A stretch of DNA of 64,000 nucleotides from Verrucomicrobiia bacterium (GTDB taxonomy: Bacteria > Verrucomicrobiota > Verrucomicrobiia > Limisphaerales > JADLHS01): the NCBI GenBank assembly GCA_026125285.1, contig JAHCLO010000023.1, forward strand, positions 41,855 through 105,854, in the 5' to 3' direction. Shown one piece after another: positions 2,509 through 51,816 of the stretch. Numbering within the stretch: the stretch's first letter is position 1; every line of letters begins with the position of its first letter. Position numbers and translations under genes: made by a program. The notes under the pieces are model-generated. The model was given only the letters and a program-made list of their open reading frames with translations. It searched no databases and had not been told where the DNA came from.

Positions 2509-2946
2509 CTACCTCGCAAGCAACCGACCCAGGAGAAATGCGGCAATCCCGATCAGAACGGCCGCCGGAAGCGCTACGTGGAACAATCCCCATGCCGCCC
2601 GTTCTCCGGCGTAATTGGAAATCCCGCGCGCTTCCGCCAGATGGGTGCCAAGGATCAGACCCAACCCGCCCACAATGATCGCGGCGGGCACCGCGATAAG
2701 CAATCCCAGAGCGAGAGACCGCCAGAGAGTGTAACTGCTGAAAAGCAACCAGGTCGTCACGGTGTGACCCACGATAAATCCAGTGAACAATCCAACGGGA
2801 ATTCCCAGCACTCCGGCCAGCAGACCACGACGGCCTTGATTTTCAGCCATGAAAAGACAAAACACACCGTACGTCGCCAACGTTACCACCACGGAAGCGA
2901 TGGGGGCGGAGAGCAGGCCAACGAGAATTGGGTAGAACACTTTCAT
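2509..2946 (-). CDS. integral membrane protein, unknown function
   Basis: Multiple hydrophobic helices (MKVFYPILVGLLSAPIASVVVTLATYGVFCLF..., LGLLIAVPAAIIVGGLGLILG, HVALPAAVLIGIAAFLLG). I start it at ATG 2946. The track ORF extends to 3033 and would overlap the response-regulator gene by 28 nt. Confidence 0.6.
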   Translation of the reverse strand: MKVFYPILVGLLSAPIASVVVTLATYGVFCLFMAENQGRRGLLAGVLGIPVGLFTGFIVGHTVTTWLLFSSYTLWRSLALGLLIAVPAAIIVGGLGLILGTHLAEARGISNYAGERAAWGLFHVALPAAVLIGIAAFLLGRLLAR

Positions 2947-3005
2947 GGCTGCATCCTGCGACTGTTGACTCCCGGAGGGAAGCGGCGACGAGAAAAGCAA
3001 TGTGA

Positions 3006-3668
3006 TCAGTCGCCGCCCACGTCCTGACGCCATTCGGGATAAATGTCCTCGGGCAGTTGCCCGCGGCGAATCAAGTCTTGCAGGTCGCGAATGATGGTCT
3101 TGCGCGAGACATTGAAATCGCGCGAAAGACCGGAGACGTTCGGTCGCTCGGTTGTGCCGCGCAGGCGTTTGATCATTTCGTGCTGGCGCGCGAGGCGTTC
3201 CGTGAAGCGGCGGTCGGGTTCTGACGATTCAATCTTCTCAGCCCGTTCCAGCGATTGGAGGAGGGCCACGGTTTCCCCGAGGCCACATTCGGTGAGGGCG
3301 ATCTCCACGGTTCGGTCGAGTTCGTCCAGGTCCACGGGTTTTTCCAAAATGTAATGCGCCGAGCGTGGACCTTGCAGCGCGGCGAGTTTCTCGCGGATTT
3401 GCAGCGTGCCAGAAATCATGATGACGGGCACGTGCGCGGCAACGGCCTTGAGCTTGGGCAGGAATTCCAAACCCTTCTCGCCTTCGTCCAGGATGTTGTC
3501 GAGGATGATGAGGTCGGGCTTGGTGTCGGCAATGGATTCGAGGGCCGCACGGCCCGTGGAGACGCAGGTGAGGCGATAACCGCGCAACGCCTTGCCGTAG
3601 AGCTTGAGCTGCTTCGGATCGTCTTCGACAATCAATATCGAGGCCATGGTTTCTTCAGTTGCCGTCAT
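3006..3668 (-). CDS. response regulator: REC domain plus C-terminal helix-turn-helix
   Basis: Receiver motifs ILIVEDD, DLIILDNIL and VPVIMISG. C-terminal HTH-like segment NVSGLSRDFNVSRKTIIRDLQDLIRRGQL. Starts 10 nt downstream of the kinase stop. Confidence 0.85.
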   Translation of the reverse strand: MTATEETMASILIVEDDPKQLKLYGKALRGYRLTCVSTGRAALESIADTKPDLIILDNILDEGEKGLEFLPKLKAVAAHVPVIMISGTLQIREKLAALQGPRSAHYILEKPVDLDELDRTVEIALTECGLGETVALLQSLERAEKIESSEPDRRFTERLARQHEMIKRLRGTTERPNVSGLSRDFNVSRKTIIRDLQDLIRRGQLPEDIYPEWRQDVGGD

Positions 3669-7670: not shown

Positions 7671-7737
7671 TTGGCGGTGAAGCTCATTGCTACCATGGCA
7701 CATTCACCTTAACCCTCCCCATGAACCCTCGACCGGA

Positions 7738-7801
7738 GCGCGGGTCTGTGACCCGCAACGGTCTCGGCCAGTCCAGCGCGCTGCGGGTCACAGACCCGCG
7801 C
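7738..7801. repeat. perfect 20-bp-stem hairpin, REP-like, possible terminator downstream of the nap cluster
   Basis: GCGCGGGTCTGTGACCCGCA (7738-7757) and TGCGGGTCACAGACCCGCGC (7782-7801) are exact reverse complements separated by a 24-nt loop. Confidence 0.8.
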
Positions 7802-8044
7802 TCCGACCGCGCCCTCCGGTTCAGGGGTTCAAGGCGCGAGATTTCATCTGGGAGAAATCTCTCCCTGAGGGAGAGGGAATGGTCATCACCTGATTTGCTT
7901 TTGCCATAGCATTGCTGAACCGACTCCGTCGCAGGTTTTCCACAGCGTCGGCGAACGATTATCCCCCTCCCGCGGGGAGAAGGAGAACGCCGACGGATGA
8001 TCTCCAAGTTTTTCACCGTTTGTGCGTGATGTCTTGTCATGGCA

Positions 8045-13563: not shown

Positions 13564-13690
13564 GAATCCGAAATCCGAAATCCGAATCCCGAAGGAATCC
13601 CGAAATCCGAAAACCGAACACACGGATACGTTTTCCGCTTCGGCATTCGGGCTTCGGATTTCTTTCGGATTTCGTCATTCGGATTTCAGG
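13564..13690. repeat. long imperfect inverted repeat built from CCGAAATCCGAA / TTCGGATTTCGG units
   Basis: Left arm GAATCCGAAATCCGAAATCCGAATCCCGAAGGAATCCCGAAATCCGAAAACCGAA. Right arm TTCGGCATTCGGGCTTCGGATTTCTTTCGGATTTCGTCATTCGGATTTCAGG. It fills the gap between the NrfD-like stop (13693) and the octaheme start (13546). Confidence 0.75.
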
Positions 13691-13692
13691 TT

Positions 13693-14919: not shown

Positions 14920-14927
14920 GTGAAGGT

Positions 14928-15043
14928 GTAGCGCAGACTGGCAGTCTGCCGTATCGCGGATTGGCAATCCGCGGCCATCCCAATTCTCGAGCGTCCTGCC
15001 GACTGCCAGTCGGCGGACACAGCAGATTGACAATCTGCGCTAC
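14928..15043. repeat. 116-bp MITE-like element bounded by GTAGCGCAG / CTGCGCTAC
   Basis: Ends GTAGCGCAG (14928-14936) and CTGCGCTAC (15035-15043) are reverse complements. Internal mini-hairpins: CAGACTG-G-CAGTCTG, GCGGATTG-G-CAATCCGC, CAGATTG-A-CAATCTG. Same architecture as 51587-51719. Confidence 0.8.
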
Positions 15044-15082
15044 AAGCTTGCGCACGCGCCGTGGGTTGATCGTTGTTCCAAT

Positions 15083-16935: not shown

Positions 16936-18396
16936 ATGCAGGAGTATCCCAAACATTATTGCGGTGTGTTCGGCGTGTTCGGTCATCCGAACGCGGCGGA
17001 ATTAACGTATTACGGACTGTTTGCGCTGCAACACCGAGGGCAGGAGAGCGCCGGCATCGTCACCAGTGATGGCCGCCAATTTCACAAGCACGTCGGCATG
17101 GGGCTGGTGTCGCAGGTCTTCGACGGCGACATCCTTCACAACCTCGTCGGGCATATCGCCGTTGGGCACACGCGTTATTCGACCACGGGATCATCGCATT
17201 TGCGCAACGCCCAGCCGTTGACGGCGGATTGCAGGCGCGGCCAGATCGCCGTGGCGCACAATGGCAATCTGACCAACGCCAACCAGTTGCGCGAAAGTCT
17301 CGAAGCGCGCGGCTCGATTTTTCAAACCTCGGTGGACAGCGAGATTATCGTGCATCTGCTGGCCCAGCCCAGCGTCGGCAACGGCACCAATCATCTGGTC
17401 AATGCCATTCACCGTCTCGAAGGCGCCTATTCCCTCGTCATCATGACCGAGCACGAATTGGTCGGCGTGCGGGATCCGCACGGCTTCCGTCCACTTTGTC
17501 TTGGCAAGCTGGGCGACGGCTGGGTGCTCGCCAGCGAAACCTGTGCGTTGGATTTGATCCATGCCAAGTTTGTCCGCGACGTTGAACCGGGCGAGATCAT
17601 CATCATCAACAAGGATGGACTTACGAGCCTCAAGCCGTTTCCCGATCACGCACAGCGGGCGTTCTGCATTTTTGAGTACGTGTATTTTGCGCGCCCGGAC
17701 AGCCATTTGGCGAATCAGAATGTTTACCGAGTGCGGGTGGAGATGGGCCGCCAACTTGCGCGGGAGCATCTGGTCGCTGCCGACCTCGTGGTCCCCGTGC
17801 CCGACAGCGGCAACTGCGCGGCACTGGGTTATTCCTTGGAGTCGGGCATTCCCTTTGAGATGGCCTTTGTGCGCAATCATTACATCGGCCGCAGCTTCCT
17901 TCAGCCGACCCAGCTCATCCGAGATTTCAACGTGCGCGTGAAGTTGAATCTCATCGGCGAACTGGTGCGGGGCAAGCGCGTGGTGGTGGTGGATGATTCC
18001 ATCGTGCGCGGGACGACGTGCAAGGCGCGCGTGAACAATCTCAAAGAAGCCGGCGCGAGGGAGGTCCACGTCATGGTGAGCTGCCCGCCGCACATGCATC
18101 CGTGCGTGTATGGCATTGATTTTCCCGATCGCAACAAATTAATGGCGGCCAATCATTCCCTGGATGAAATCCGCAAGTACCTCAACGCGGATTCACTGCA
18201 CTATCTTTCCCAGGATGGAATGATCCGCGCGACCGGCCAACCTCGGGACGGGTTTTGCATGGCGTGTTACGACGGTAAATACCCCGTGCCGTACGATCCC
18301 GCTGTCAGCAAGCACATCATCGAGCGCCGCAATGGCCGCGTCATGGGCTTGAGCGACGCCATAGTGGCCGAGCGTGCGCAGATCCCGCTAATTTAA
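16936..18396 (+). CDS. purF: amidophosphoribosyltransferase
   Basis: A short propeptide is followed by the catalytic Cys: MQEYPKHYCGVFGVFGHPNAAELTYYGLFALQHRGQESAGIV. PRTase motif VVVVDDSIVRGTT. C-terminal Cys ligands are present. The track ORF begins at TTG 16915. Confidence 0.95.
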   Translation: MQEYPKHYCGVFGVFGHPNAAELTYYGLFALQHRGQESAGIVTSDGRQFHKHVGMGLVSQVFDGDILHNLVGHIAVGHTRYSTTGSSHLRNAQPLTADCRRGQIAVAHNGNLTNANQLRESLEARGSIFQTSVDSEIIVHLLAQPSVGNGTNHLVNAIHRLEGAYSLVIMTEHELVGVRDPHGFRPLCLGKLGDGWVLASETCALDLIHAKFVRDVEPGEIIIINKDGLTSLKPFPDHAQRAFCIFEYVYFARPDSHLANQNVYRVRVEMGRQLAREHLVAADLVVPVPDSGNCAALGYSLESGIPFEMAFVRNHYIGRSFLQPTQLIRDFNVRVKLNLIGELVRGKRVVVVDDSIVRGTTCKARVNNLKEAGAREVHVMVSCPPHMHPCVYGIDFPDRNKLMAANHSLDEIRKYLNADSLHYLSQDGMIRATGQPRDGFCMACYDGKYPVPYDPAVSKHIIERRNGRVMGLSDAIVAERAQIPLI

Positions 18397-18469
18397 TGCG
18401 TGATGCGTGATGCGTGAAATCGGAGGTTGCCGACCGCAGGTCACGTTTCACGCATCACGCATCACGCAT
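18396..18469. terminator. perfect 24-bp-stem hairpin directly after the purF stop (REP-like, possible terminator)
   Basis: ATGCGTGATGCGTGATGCGTGAAA (18396-18419) pairs with TTTCACGCATCACGCATCACGCAT (18446-18469) across a 26-nt loop. It overlaps the last base of the TAA stop. There is no U-tract, so terminator function is inferred only. Confidence 0.5.
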
Positions 18470-32209: not shown

Positions 32210-32288
32210 GGTAGGGCGCGTCACTCCGTGCGCGCCGGTGGGAAAGCCAGGAGTCGGTGGCGGCGCGCACGGAGTGACGCGCCCTACC
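32210..32288. terminator. perfect 27-bp-stem hairpin 28 nt after the decarboxylase stop (REP-like, possible terminator)
   Basis: GGTAGGGCGCGTCACTCCGTGCGCGCC (32210-32236) and GGCGCGCACGGAGTGACGCGCCCTACC (32262-32288) are exact reverse complements across a 25-nt loop. Confidence 0.5.
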
Positions 32289-38670: not shown

Positions 38671-39176
38671 GTTGGTTATCCTTTCGGTTGCATTGTTCAC
38701 TGTTGTCAGAAGTATAAAAGCTGCCGACATGCCAGCAGCTTGTAACGTGTATAACTACCTATTTAGCAGTTGCATGCGGTGATAGCGGCAACTGCAAATG
38801 CTTGCTGAATGGAGTCGTTATGACTCATCTTGATGTGCATAATGCTGATTGATGTGCCATTGAGTCGCCTTTGTGTGAAGTCAGGCTTTGGCGAAGTCCT
38901 GGGTGTTGTGAAATGGTAAGTTGCCCGGAGTTCAATTGCTACTCAGGCAACCAAGGGCGACAACTGGCAAAGCCCTCGTACAAGGGAGGAGTTGCCGCCT
39001 GTGACTGTTTAACTTGATAGCCCAAATTTCATGGATGCGAGGCGGTTTTGACCTTTTTTCGCCGTGCGCGCGGTGCAAGTGATTGCACGCCAAGCCCCGC
39101 GCTTTCCAAACGCCGCAAGTGGAGACCCAGCCCCTTCCACACCCCGCTCCCCCCATGATACACTCGCGCCCAAAAG

Positions 39177-40961
39177 ATGTTCCTGCGTTTCAACACCCGC
39201 CACAAAGACGGCAAGCGGCATCGCTACTGGAGCGTCGTCGAGAACCGCCGCCTGCGCGCCGGCCACACCACCCAGCGCACCGTTCTCTATTTGGGCGAAA
39301 TCAATGACACGCAACAAGCCGCCTGGCGCAAGCATCTCGACGCACTCAATGAAGCCACCCAACTCACCGAACAAATCTGTCTCTTCCCCGAAGACCGCGA
39401 GGTGCCGCCGGACGTCCTCAACGGCCTGCAGGTCAAACTCTCCGAACTGACGTTGCAACATCCGCGCGTCTTCGGCGATTGCTGGCTGGCCTGCCGCTTG
39501 TGGGATGAACTCAAACTGAACTCCTTCTGGCGCAAGCGCCTGCCCGACGGCAAGGCCGAAGTCCCCTGGTGCAAAGTCCTCGAACTGCTGGCCGTGCGCC
39601 AACTCGTTTCCCCGGGCAGCAAGTGGCAGTTGCATCGCCGCTGGTTTCTCGCCAGCGCGATGGACCAGTTGCTCGATGAGGACTTTGCCCTCGCTGCCAA
39701 GAATCGGCTCTACGAATGTCTGGACCGCATTGACACCCAGCGCGCCGCGCTCTTCACGCACCTGCAAGCCCGCTGGAAAGACCTCTTCGGCGCCCCTTAC
39801 GATCTGTTGCTCTACGATCTGACTCGCCCCGTGAGATAGAGCCCGTTGAGGAATCAAGCGCCGCAGCTTCGCGTATCTCACGGGGCGAGCACTTACTTCG
39901 AGGGCCAAATGGAACAAGCGCCCAAGGCCCGACACGGCCACAGCCGCGACCGGCGCCCCGACTGCCGGCAAGTCGTCATCGCCGTGGTCCTGAGCGCGGA
40001 GGGTTTTCCGCTGGCCTACGAAATCATGCCCGGCCACACCAGCGACAAGACCACGCTGCGGCACTTTCTCCAAAAGATCGAAGCGCAATACGGCAAGGCC
40101 CAGCGCATCTGGATCATGGACCGCGGCATCCCCACCGAAGACGTGCTGCGTGAAATGCGCGCCAGCGATCCGCCCGTCTCCTATCTGGTGGGCGCGCCGC
40201 GCGCCCGGTGGCAACCATTCCGCGCCGGGTTTGAAAAGCTCCGTTGGCAGGAACTGCGCGCCGGGATCGCCGTCAAACTCCTGGTCCACGGCGAGGAACT
40301 CTACGTGCTGGTCCAAAGCCAGGGCCGGCGCGCCAAAGAAGTCGCCATGCGCCGACGCCGACTCGCCCGGCTCTTATGCACCTTGCGTGCGCTGCGGCGG
40401 GTGCGCCAACGCCCGTGGAAAGGCGACACGCTCCTGCACAAACTCGGCGCCGCGCACAAGGAAGCCGGCGGCGCGTGGCGTTTTGTCAAAATCACCTTGC
40501 CCACAGCGCGCCAGAGCGTCCGCCCCGACCCCTTCAAATTTGCATTGCTCAAAGATGCGTTGAAGCAAGCGCAAGCACGCGACGGTTACACGTTATTGCG
40601 CGCCTTCCGCGCCGGCGACCAGGCCGCGCCCCTCTGGGAACGCTACCTGCAACTGGGCGAAATCGAAGGCGCCTTCAAAACCCTCAAGAGCGACCTGCAT
40701 CTGCGCCCCATCCGGCATCACGTCGAGGCGCGGATCGAGGCGCACATCTTGGTCTGCTTTCGGGCGTATTGTTTGCACGTCACGTTGCGCAAGCGCCTGG
40801 CAGCCCACGCGCCGGGCCTGACCACGCGCGAAGTGCTGGCGACGCTCTGGCGCTTTGATTGGCGATGGGAAGGAGAAAGTGGTGGCAATGTTTCGGCCTT
40901 GAGCAGAGGGAACGCCATCGGCCGTGGCGCGGAGTTGCACTCTGCCGTATCGCGCATTTGA
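39177..40961 (+). pseudogene. IS1634-family (IS4 superfamily) DDE transposase, interrupted by an in-frame stop-bearing palindrome and with a replaced 3' end
   Basis: Two same-frame ORFs, 39177..39839 and 39846..40961. They read ...LLLYDLT[63-bp insert]STYFEGQMEQAPKARHGHSRDRRPDCRQVV...IWIMDRGI...YLQLGEIEGAFKTLKSDLHLRPIRH, matching the IS1634-type YDLTSTYFEG/D/D/E layout as I remember it. Similarity is lost near 40855, where a palindromic repeat begins. Confidence 0.8.
39825..39887. repeat. 63-bp palindromic insertion (14-bp perfect stems) inside the transposase ORF
   Basis: CGCCCCGTGAGATA (39825-39838) and TATCTCACGGGGCG (39874-39887) are exact reverse complements across a 35-nt loop. Removing 39825-39887 restores CTG ACT AGC ACT TAC TTC GAG GGC, which is LTSTYFEG. 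The length is a multiple of 3, and TAG at 39837-39839 is the only stop. Confidence 0.85.
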
Positions 40962-41038
40962 AATCCGCAGACGGTGGCGGGCTGCCGGCGCCTGCTGAAT
41001 GCAACTCGGCGATACAGCAGACTGCAAGTCTGCGCAAC
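40931..41038. repeat. degenerate member of the GTAGCGCAG-family palindromic repeats
   Basis: Shares CTGCCGTATCGCG and TCGGCGATACAGCAGACTGCAAGTCTGCGC with the elements at 14928 and 51587. It starts where transposase homology ends. Confidence 0.6.
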
Positions 41039-41195
41039 AATCGGGTACGACTGAGGCCTTGCTATTGGCGGTTTCTGCCGGGCAGACGACAGCCGCCACG
41101 CAGCCGCCGGCCGATGGTCAATTCACACGGGTACCGTCTGCCACCCATGCGGCAAGCGCCAGAGCTTGTGGCGGCAAAACTCGTCGCCCCGCAAT

Positions 41196-51552: not shown

Positions 51553-51586
51553 ATTGCGATGGATGCAGGACGAGCCTCCTCGGTTT

Positions 51587-51719
51587 GTAGCGCAGGATTG
51601 CATCCTGCTGTATCGCGGATTTTCAACCCGCAACCGCCCGGCAGACTCAAGGCGTAGTTACATTTCGACAATCCGCCGAATGCAATTCGGCGATACGGCA
51701 GATTGACAATCTGCGCTAC
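51587..51719. repeat. 133-bp MITE-like element bounded by GTAGCGCAG / CTGCGCTAC
   Basis: Ends at 51587-51595 and 51711-51719 are reverse complements. Internal mini-hairpins: CAGGATTGCATCCTG, CCGAATGCAATTCGG, CAGATTGACAATCTG. Same family as 14928-15043. Confidence 0.8.
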
Positions 51720-51816
51720 ACCGCGCCCTCACTTGCGGCGGGACTGGCCAAACTGCCGCACCCCCGTTGCGCGAGCGTTGCTTGTCTCGCACGTTGAACT
51801 CCGCTATTTTGCGCGC

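Follow-up and report, generated by a model that had tools for sequence, protein, structure and literature searches.

Neisseria meningitidis encodes SsnA, a GIY-YIG protein of one domain and 94 amino acids (aa). According to Chenal et al. (2025, Nat Commun, PMC11893778), SsnA recognises its NTS hairpin solely when the latter is single-stranded DNA (ssDNA), and cuts just upstream of it. The same account reports thousands of SsnA homologues flanked by Ssn-related motifs (SRM; published motif HGTCWYN(0-2)YYVSBRHN(0-5)WNVSBRGN(0-2)RNCYNB) and a low proportion, 2%, of intragenic NTS repeats; the arrangement NTS-ssnA-NTS is likened there to an insertion sequence (IS) and to REP/RAYT systems, and its mobility is presented as a hypothesis and not as a demonstrated property (PMC11893778). 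REPINs, as the sources cited here describe them, are hairpins of two inverted repeat units with a spacer (PMC3337134) and are non-autonomous and tied to a small repeat-flanked gene (Bertels and Rainey 2011, PMC3116915). Here we examine a 63-nucleotide (nt) hairpin that interrupts an IS1634-family transposase gene in a 64,000-nt stretch of DNA from a Verrucomicrobiia bacterium (assembly GCA_026125285.1, contig JAHCLO010000023.1, positions 41,855 to 105,854; the whole stretch is hereafter called the window). We read the insert as a copy of a non-autonomous hairpin element that resembles REPINs and the Rickettsia palindromic elements (RPE) in its behaviour.

Two open reading frames (ORFs) of the window, 39177-39839 and 39846-40961, are one reading frame split by a single TAG (39837-39839), which is the sole in-frame stop across 39177-40961. 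The TAG is part of a 63-nt insert of 21 codons (39825-39887; translation RPVR*SPLRNQAPQLRVSHGA), and deletion of these 63 nt in silico restores YDLTSTYFEG (...LLYDLTSTYFEG...), as an initial annotation of the sequence had proposed. The exact inverted termini noted in that annotation are present, but the repeat is perfect over 16 nt and not 14 (39823-39838, CTCGCCCCGTGAGATA; 39874-39889, TATCTCACGGGGCGAG; 35 nt between the arms), and its right-hand 4 bp, CGAG, belong to the host. The window reads CTGA-CTCG-CCCCGTGAGATA-N35-TATCTCACGGGG-CGAGCACT, and the host CGAG pairs with the CTCG of the element, by which the stem reaches 16 bp (Table 1). Folded as ssDNA, the hairpin has an energy of -23.9 kcal/mol, compared with -12.45 +/- 2.17 for dinucleotide shuffles (z = -5.28; none of 200 shuffles was as good). 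The insert cuts the transposase short beyond the first catalytic Asp motif, the stop codon being made by the arm together with the first base of the loop. Rfam gave no family match for the hairpin at permissive or gathering thresholds, and neither a second nor a degenerate copy was found within the 64-kb window, in agreement with the initial report of a single copy.

The joined transposase has thousands of close relatives of 599-603 aa, some of them named IS1634 family transposase by NCBI, and its C-terminal part matches the Pfam domain DDE_Tnp_1 (PF01609; E 5.6e-09). Identity is 83-91% to the closest intact homologues (600-603 aa) and 75-91% over the listed set. A 21-column gap falls exactly at the insert in all nine aligned intact homologues of 599-603 aa. 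An equivalent 21-aa segment, which the initial annotation had raised as a possible natural feature of intact IS1634-family transposases, occurs in none of the best 120 homologues, and YDLTSTYFEG is present in 110 of these. The comparison with intact copies advised in that annotation could also be made at the DNA level among related loci retrieved from genome and metagenome collections (designated by L-numbers), and all of these sites are empty: CTGACGAGCACT in L120 (91% identical DNA; codons CTG ACG AGC ACT), CTCACGAGCACT in L183-185 (CTC ACG AGC ACT) and CTGACCAGCACT in L186/187 (CTG ACC AGC ACT). The net gain at the transposase is 63 nt (CTCG, arm, loop and arm) between GA and CGAG, and comparison of filled and empty DNA revealed no target-site duplication at this junction, as first noted. 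The insert is very probably a mobile element whose arrival inactivated the reading frame of the transposase. The initial suggestion of a hairpin-type mobile element is borne out by the recurrence of the same hairpin at other loci, by a presence/absence polymorphism in CobW genes and by loops shared between differing flanks, all described below.

The IS itself is incomplete. A DDE transposase of ~600 aa and terminal repeats place it in the IS1634 group of the IS4 family, of which two identical full copies from another sample (L186/L187) measure 2047 bp with 19-bp terminal repeats; the window copy retains the left end only. No right terminal inverted repeat of the IS was found in the window, and similarity to the intact IS (L120 DNA) ends at 40847, after REVLATL, where the protein alignment diverges too. 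The window copy was already dead, or became so, independently of the hairpin, and because it is also truncated at its 3' end, removal of the hairpin would not give a working IS. The earlier view that the hairpin had disabled a competing IS stands as regards the broken frame, but the 3' truncation would have sufficed to silence this copy in any case, and the word "competing" is speculative.

Table 1. Positions in the window of the hairpin element and of the IS1634-family copy that contains it
Feature	Position	Strand	Basis or remark
Left terminal inverted repeat of the IS1634-family element, AGCCCAAATTTCATGGATGC	39019..39038	+	Matches the reverse complement of the L120 right end and the L186/L187 19-bp repeats
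Transposase gene, 5' part, to ..LLYDL plus 2 nt of the Thr216 codon	39177..39822	+	Protein homology
Inserted hairpin element, 63 nt	39823..39885	+	Absent from all intact homologues examined; placement ambiguous by 1 nt (one C)
Element-borne outer CTCG	39823-39826	+	Part of the 63-nt hairpin insert
Arm A, CCCCGTGAGATA	39827-39838	+	Part of the 63-nt hairpin insert
In-frame TAG	39837..39839	+	Final two bases of arm A and base 1 of the loop
35-nt loop	39839-39873	+	Part of the 63-nt hairpin insert
Arm B, TATCTCACGGGG	39874-39885	+	Part of the 63-nt hairpin insert
Host tetranucleotide CGAG (part of the Thr216/Ser217 codons)	39886..39889	+	In empty sites of L120 and L183-185 (ACGAGC)
Transposase gene, 3' part, STYFEG... 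to ...REVLATL	39886..40847	+	Pfam PF01609; without the last ~45-60 codons and the right IS end

The hairpin is far from unique to this locus. A scan for exact CCCCGTGAGATA-N(25-45)-TATCTCACGGGG in one genome per species (596 Gb) retrieved at least 119 loci with the arm pair, where by our own arithmetic (24 fixed bases, 21 gap lengths) about 0.04 matches would be expected by chance, and 45 metagenome loci were found with the CTCG/CGAG subtype of the window. The architecture of the window hairpin is shared by 173 copies elsewhere, from genomes and metagenomes. Among the matches listed, the records are metagenome-assembled genomes (MAGs) of Patescibacteria (Kaiser-, Nomura-, Campbell-, Saccharibacteria and others), Verrucomicrobiota and Planctomycetota, with further labels of Ignavibacteriales and Melioribacter, Bacteroidota, Calditrichia, KSB1, Acidobacteria and others. 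Contigs binned as Bifidobacteriaceae (L002, L049, L073) also carry a CTCG-type hairpin; the L002 locus is the same as a locus from a Verrucomicrobiota MAG (L018), and these assignments are probably binning errors in public MAGs. A phage origin of the element was ruled out, a search of 2.9 million viral contigs (IMG/VR) having given one match only. Searches of the literature text with the arm sequences and with related concepts did not turn up any account of the element; the family is widespread and apparently undescribed.

Among 126 copies, loops of 34, 35, 36, 37 and 38 nt occurred 13, 31, 22, 20 and 9 times, respectively, and 33 of the 45 metagenome copies of the CTCG subtype have a loop of exactly 35 nt. 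Loop sequences are diverse: the 173 copies fall into 128 loop families, most multi-member families represent orthologous positions, and loop GC content tracks that of the host (0.65 vs 0.42). The outer 4-nt pairs differ by clade: Patescibacteria have TATA/TATA, Verrucomicrobia-like genomes have CTCG/CGAG, and in the remaining groups TTCA is combined with TAAA or TGAA. Of the 126 copies, 98-104 show complementarity at outer positions 1, 3 and 4, brought about by differing base pairs, and complementarity at position 6 is no more frequent than expected by chance; TTCA/TAAA, the outer pair seen most often (30 copies), has a constant C.A mismatch. Near-identical loops were found in different flanks in several loop families: in two copies in L080 and one in L161, in an FGGY kinase gene (L006/L028) and an epimerase gene (L058), and in L159 as against L142/L156/L160. 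Such sharing indicates that the hairpin moves as a unit, as copy-and-paste predicts. In Ignavibacteriales MAG loci (L004, L030, L035, L048, L072) the hairpin is found within a larger mosaic, with an NTS-like hairpin (GTCATTCCCG...CGGGAATC) upstream of it and an outer inverted repeat (ATGCCCGA...TCGGGCAT) enclosing it, a layout that resembles BIME/NIME mosaics.

A second comparison of filled and empty sites comes from a gene unrelated to the transposase. The CobW/G3E GTPase of L055 was used to query a protein collection, and of its best 120 homologues (~80-100% identical) 80 are without and 40 are with a 21-aa SPREI-X12-ISRG insert, which follows ...LLFGIGR and precedes EKK.... At the DNA level the sequence GGACG-CTCG[arm-N35-arm]-CGAGAAAA was found in six filled alleles, and the empty alleles read GGACG^CGAAAAAA (L179) and GGCCG^GGAGAAAA (L180), where ^ marks the insertion point. 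The net gain is again 63 nt, without duplication and with a CGAG-like host tetranucleotide 3' of the insert, and the junction rule is identical at the two genes (GA^CGAG in the window, CG^CGA(G/A) in CobW). In both of these cases the element-borne tetranucleotide is upstream on the sense strand of the host gene; two integrase sites described below, L042, L058 and L061 are oriented likewise, as assigned by codon logic or by analogy. Insertion into the template of the lagging strand, or into the non-template strand, would be compatible with this orientation, in a sample that is small and in which several orientations come from analogy alone. The arms are perfect in 29 of the 40 filled CobW copies and decayed in the rest (SPRDI, SPGEI, ISPGE); arms thus do drift once the insert is fixed. 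CobW/G3E orthologues (P0260-P0279, P0284-P0285 and others) also have a second, independent presence/absence insert, ..EPGS(SSFAEATADRP)IPATT.., ~10 aa downstream of the SPREI insert, and a PSEACPEQSRRVEG stretch resembling it is found at ~2900-2960 of the epimerase locus L058. Other repeat families, too, appear to sit in frame in genes of the phyla that bear the hairpin.

Occupation of genes is a frequent habit of this family. Many copies are inside long ORFs, where they read ...SPREI-X(11-13)-ISRG..., and the ORF stays open after removal of the loop plus 28 nt in 7 of 8 genes tested; the host genes of in-frame copies match the Pfam families FGGY_N/C, Epimerase, cobW/CobW_C, Radical_SAM/RlmN_N and FG-GAP. 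The modal size of the hairpin is 4 + 12 + 35 + 12 = 63 nt, or 21 codons. One frame of the arms is open (SPREI...ISRG), one always contains TGA, and the third gives RPVR and then TAx, a stop codon if the first loop base is A or G; the window insert uses this third frame. Many copies persist in frame within ordinary genes because the modal size is 21 codons and one arm frame is free of stops. Of 54 distinct copies of the CTCG subtype, 41 have a loop length of 2 mod 3; the Patescibacteria subtype shows no such preference (8 of 25 copies).

At some loci the arms enclose or adjoin a gene. In L101 two arms 275 bp apart enclose a small ORF, as do arms in L074, L078 and L104, and GIY-YIG ORFs adjoin arm copies in L042 and L107. 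The enclosed ORFs, of 87-90 aa, match GIY-YIG (PF01541) only in Pfam (E 1e-13 to 1e-17). They start 5-7 nt after arm A, and their final four codons, TAT CTC ACG GGG (YLTG), are arm B, with the stop supplied by the outer TAAA or by the next arm. A protein search with the GIY-YIG sequence gave 1655 clusters, nearly all of 87 aa; among the best 120, 109 are of this length and 115 end in YLTG. An exhaustive search (E<=1e-10) gave 907 representatives at 50% identity, and in the best 149 of these YLTG was found in 30, while others have related endings, among them YFTG and FLSLTG. Three of the proteins were traced to their DNA, and all 12 places found have TTCA-arm...arm-TAAA, the arms being 278-280 bp apart. 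The full unit of arms and GIY-YIG gene is thus ~284 bp.

Full units split integron-integrase-like genes (PF13495 and PF00589) on the same strand in L121-L132 and L074, and the interruption falls at either of two conserved motifs (RLRV^KD or GKG.KDR). A further gene, which we take from its sequence to be DUF1016-like, is interrupted by the unit in L104 and L042. Miniature copies (arms and loop only) and full units form mini-full-mini arrays in L104 and L074, where the junction arm B-4 nt-arm A is a tight 28-nt palindrome. Tandem arm-(8-9 nt)-arm arrays with decaying arms adjoin the GIY-YIG unit at 150-370 of L101, and L052 has dense clusters of full and half arms at 2700-3290. A CRISPR-like organisation of arm, spacer and arm was considered and rejected, because copies are mostly solitary, their repeats run in opposite orientations, and the "spacers" of the L101 and L052 arrays are of 8-9 nt or the size of a gene.

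We used a GIY-YIG protein of Azospirillum lipoferum, whose gene is flanked on both sides by canonical SRM repeats, as a proxy for SsnA. The hairpin-linked GIY-YIG protein is 37% identical to it over 70 aa (pairwise E 1e-13; tblastn E 2e-5), and the C-termini differ; the nearest solved structures are those of UPF0213 proteins (E 0.008). The Azospirillum gene, of Ssn type, is on plasmid AZO_p3 between sufB and sufC (L181). Each of its flanks (891-974 and 1315-1399) is an inverted SRM doublet with 28-29-nt spacers, which amounts to a REPIN-like arrangement of the published motif.

Judged from these sequences, the hairpin element would work like the Ssn/SRM and REPIN/RAYT pairs, yet it departs from each in defining features. 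It shares with Ssn a single-domain GIY-YIG protein of ~90 aa (the 87-90-aa ORFs with PF01541 only, which are found in related loci and not in the window) and an IS-like layout in which hairpin-forming repeats stand on both sides of the gene and are also dispersed elsewhere in the genome (L074, L078, L101, L104 and the 12 places traced from protein to DNA). However, a regular expression for the SRM motif matches an NTS control and the Azospirillum flanks but none of 173 hairpin copies and nothing in the window. The hairpin arms straddle the gene or the 35-nt loop, whereas each Ssn flank has a tight hairpin; the C-terminus of the hairpin-linked protein is distinct and encoded by the arm; and hairpin copies are often in frame within genes, whereas NTS repeats are rarely intragenic. 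Filled and empty sites, moreover, have been seen for the hairpin element. The REPIN-like features are the pairing of two inverted repeat units about a spacer, which in the hairpin element is of fixed length and free sequence, and the non-autonomous character together with the tie to a small repeat-flanked gene. On the other hand, the arm CCCCGTGAGATA is not self-complementary and has neither a GTAG nor a CGTC tag, in which it differs also from the GTAG-tagged doublets of the window, and the linked gene encodes a GIY-YIG protein and not a HUH tyrosine transposase. REPINs are extragenic, whereas the hairpin elements are frequently intragenic and, as their frames read, would be translated.

The comparison with RPE and REPINs made in the initial annotation is apt as regards behaviour. 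RPE, attributed to Ogata et al. in 2000, are reportedly of 100-150 bp, confined to Rickettsia and its relatives and without an assigned enzyme. The hairpin element behaves like them in genes, but by description alone the two are set apart, the hairpin family being of 63-70 bp, present in many phyla and provided with a candidate enzyme. Similarities to IS200/IS605 elements include the lack of target duplication, insertion beside a specific tetranucleotide (here specific to the subfamily), hairpin ends with a single-strand logic, and, at the two genes for which empty sites are known, an element-borne end that is upstream with respect to the host's sense strand. In contrast, no HUH (Y1) TnpA is associated with the hairpin, its associated ORFs being GIY-YIG only; its ends pair with each other, whereas each IS200/IS605 end forms its own subterminal hairpin; and the full unit of ~284 bp is far below the size of any IS200/IS605 member.

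Our results point to mobilisation of the hairpin element as ssDNA by the linked GIY-YIG nuclease, an explanation that we regard as probable when taken as a whole and that draws on analogy with the systems above. We are slightly more guarded about the nuclease itself, which by the same analogy may well be the mobilising enzyme. The predicted nuclease, a relative of Ssn, would recognise the folded hairpin in ssDNA and cut it on the 5' side at the foot of the stem and on the 3' side four base pairs up, as the biochemistry of Ssn relatives suggests. With its 4-nt 5' tail, the strand that is excised or copied would be placed beside a matching tetranucleotide in an exposed ssDNA target (CGAG, TAAA or TATA, according to subfamily), and the joining step would be left to host enzymes or to replication. 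The outcome would be akin to that of the IS200/IS605 and REPIN/RAYT systems. It is possible, though we hold this more tentatively and would sooner doubt it than assert it, that the ~284-bp unit (4 nt, arm and an 87-codon GIY-YIG gene ending in the other arm) is an autonomous transposable element in which a hydrolytic, ssDNA-specific nuclease replaces a transposase, with the 63-nt hairpins as its non-autonomous partners, whose size and open frame would have evolved for tolerated coding insertions. Such a unit, if autonomous, would to our knowledge be the smallest transposable element.

Several observations weigh against mobilisation by the nuclease. The 64-kb window has no GIY-YIG gene of the hairpin-linked family, and such a gene is within 8 kb at only ~6 of the 119 listed loci with miniature copies and at none of those from the candidate phyla radiation (CPR; TATA-type). 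The full units seen have TTCA/TAAA outer segments, none having the CTCG/CGAG subtype of the window, and at the second integrase site (L123-132) joining of the flanks under the 4+arm..arm rule gives a frame that is off by 1 nt. Choice of target is not simple base pairing, because the C.A mismatch of TTCA/TAAA is constant. GIY-YIG nucleases hydrolyse DNA, and we know of no strand-transfer chemistry for them; given this hydrolytic chemistry, the joining of DNA is unexplained. So is the combination of a fixed loop length with a free loop sequence: the loop has not been copied from the DNA around it (the best local alignment with the surrounding +/-150 nt scores 9.3, vs 8.8 for shuffled sequence), nor is it a deletion derivative of the full GIY-YIG unit, having no similarity to arm-adjacent sequence in full units. 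The identity of the arm cores is in part an effect of ascertainment, since our searches demanded exact arms.

Some of these points would be met if the hairpin were mobile and the GIY-YIG gene only a passenger, or a second parasite on the same ends, with an integron-type tyrosine recombinase, template switching during replication or repair, or another transposase as the mover. The absence of the nuclease gene from the window and from most miniature loci fits this alternative, as do the strand-transfer chemistry lacking in GIY-YIG enzymes and the recurrence of full units inside integron-integrase-like genes. Integron integrases recognise folded single-stranded hairpins, which favours an integrase in this role. 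However, the integrase genes are interrupted by the full units and not adjacent to them, and by inspection the attC core boxes (RYYYAAC/GTTRRRY) are absent from the hairpin ends, where (N)CTCG/CGAG, TTCA/TAAA or TATA/TATA stand beside the CCCC/GGGG arm ends. The arm is, moreover, coding sequence of the nuclease (YLTG) in 115 of its best 120 homologues, the arms flank or adjoin the GIY-YIG gene at every place examined, and relatives of the nuclease act on flanking hairpins (PMC11893778). We therefore consider a passenger nuclease unlikely, while giving it real weight. A good deal less credit is due to an ordinary MITE (a miniature transposable element with inverted repeats), that is, a deletion derivative of a DDE-type IS mobilised by the IS transposase through its terminal inverted repeats. 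The inverted repeats are shared with classical MITEs, perfect termini and small size are as expected, and bacterial MITEs can insert in genes. Target-site duplication, on the other hand, is absent in both independent comparisons of filled and empty alleles, the hairpin arms bear no relation to the termini of the host IS, and between arms the GIY-YIG ORF is the sole gene found, with no DDE transposase. Arm cores that are the same across phyla and enclose unrelated loops are also a poor fit to deletion derivatives of one IS.

The position of the insert, in frame and in a catalytic motif, and its very stable stem could suggest a functional hairpin of the IS, such as a programmed switch or an RNA structure governing expression of the transposase, and a removable switch of this kind had been mentioned as a lesser option in the initial annotation. 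Nothing supports it: none of the 120 closest homologues has the insert, the IS copy is truncated at its 3' end and has lost its right end, which leaves nothing to regulate, the same hairpin occurs in unrelated housekeeping genes, and Rfam gave no match. We hold a regulatory role to be very improbable. Chance or an assembly artefact might be invoked for a palindrome that is single in the window, as chimeric reads can yield palindromes, but the fold differs strongly from shuffled sequence (z = -5.3), the identical architecture is found in >160 independent assemblies from many laboratories, and the hairpin is kept at orthologous gene positions with diverged loops; the likelihood of either is negligible.

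Our analysis goes beyond the initial annotation in linking the element to a gene for a miniature GIY-YIG nuclease and in showing the 21-codon size to be a property of the family. The 2025 description of Ssn left open the mobility of units of hairpin and GIY-YIG gene, and here a hairpin with a partner of this kind is seen as a clean insertion in two genes that are unrelated. Its junctions follow a precise rule (absence of duplication, a fixed tetranucleotide, and host bases that finish the stem), by which the question of mobility can be tested directly with a 63-nt substrate and an 87-aa protein. Colonisation of genes in frame, in the manner of RPE, is not specific to Rickettsia but extends to Verrucomicrobiota, Planctomycetota, Ignavibacteria-like lineages and others. 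If the ~284-bp unit is indeed autonomous, hairpin insertions would be inherited as new peptide segments across many bacterial phyla. In annotation, ..SPREI-X12-ISRG.. and the arm pair can flag insertions that split or lengthen genes, and in biotechnology a new pair of hairpin and nuclease would extend the range of sequence-specific ssDNA cutters.

The window has other strong hairpins (32210-32288, 7734-7805, 18396-18469 and 13565-13692), and the first three, which were checked, are all between long ORFs. Among their features are (near-)perfect arms of 28 nt and 27 nt, a block of (ATGCGTG)n in inverted form and short inverted repeats of the AATCCGA type; in appearance they are terminators or repeat structures with no relation to the insert. 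Inverted doublets of the form TGTAGCGCAG...CTGCGCTACA, 120-135 bp long and occurring at 14927-15044 and 51586-51720, are GTAG-tagged REP doublets of the REPIN type. A partial copy of this palindromic repeat, at 40918-41045, abuts the truncated 3' end of the IS and is separate from the hairpin element.

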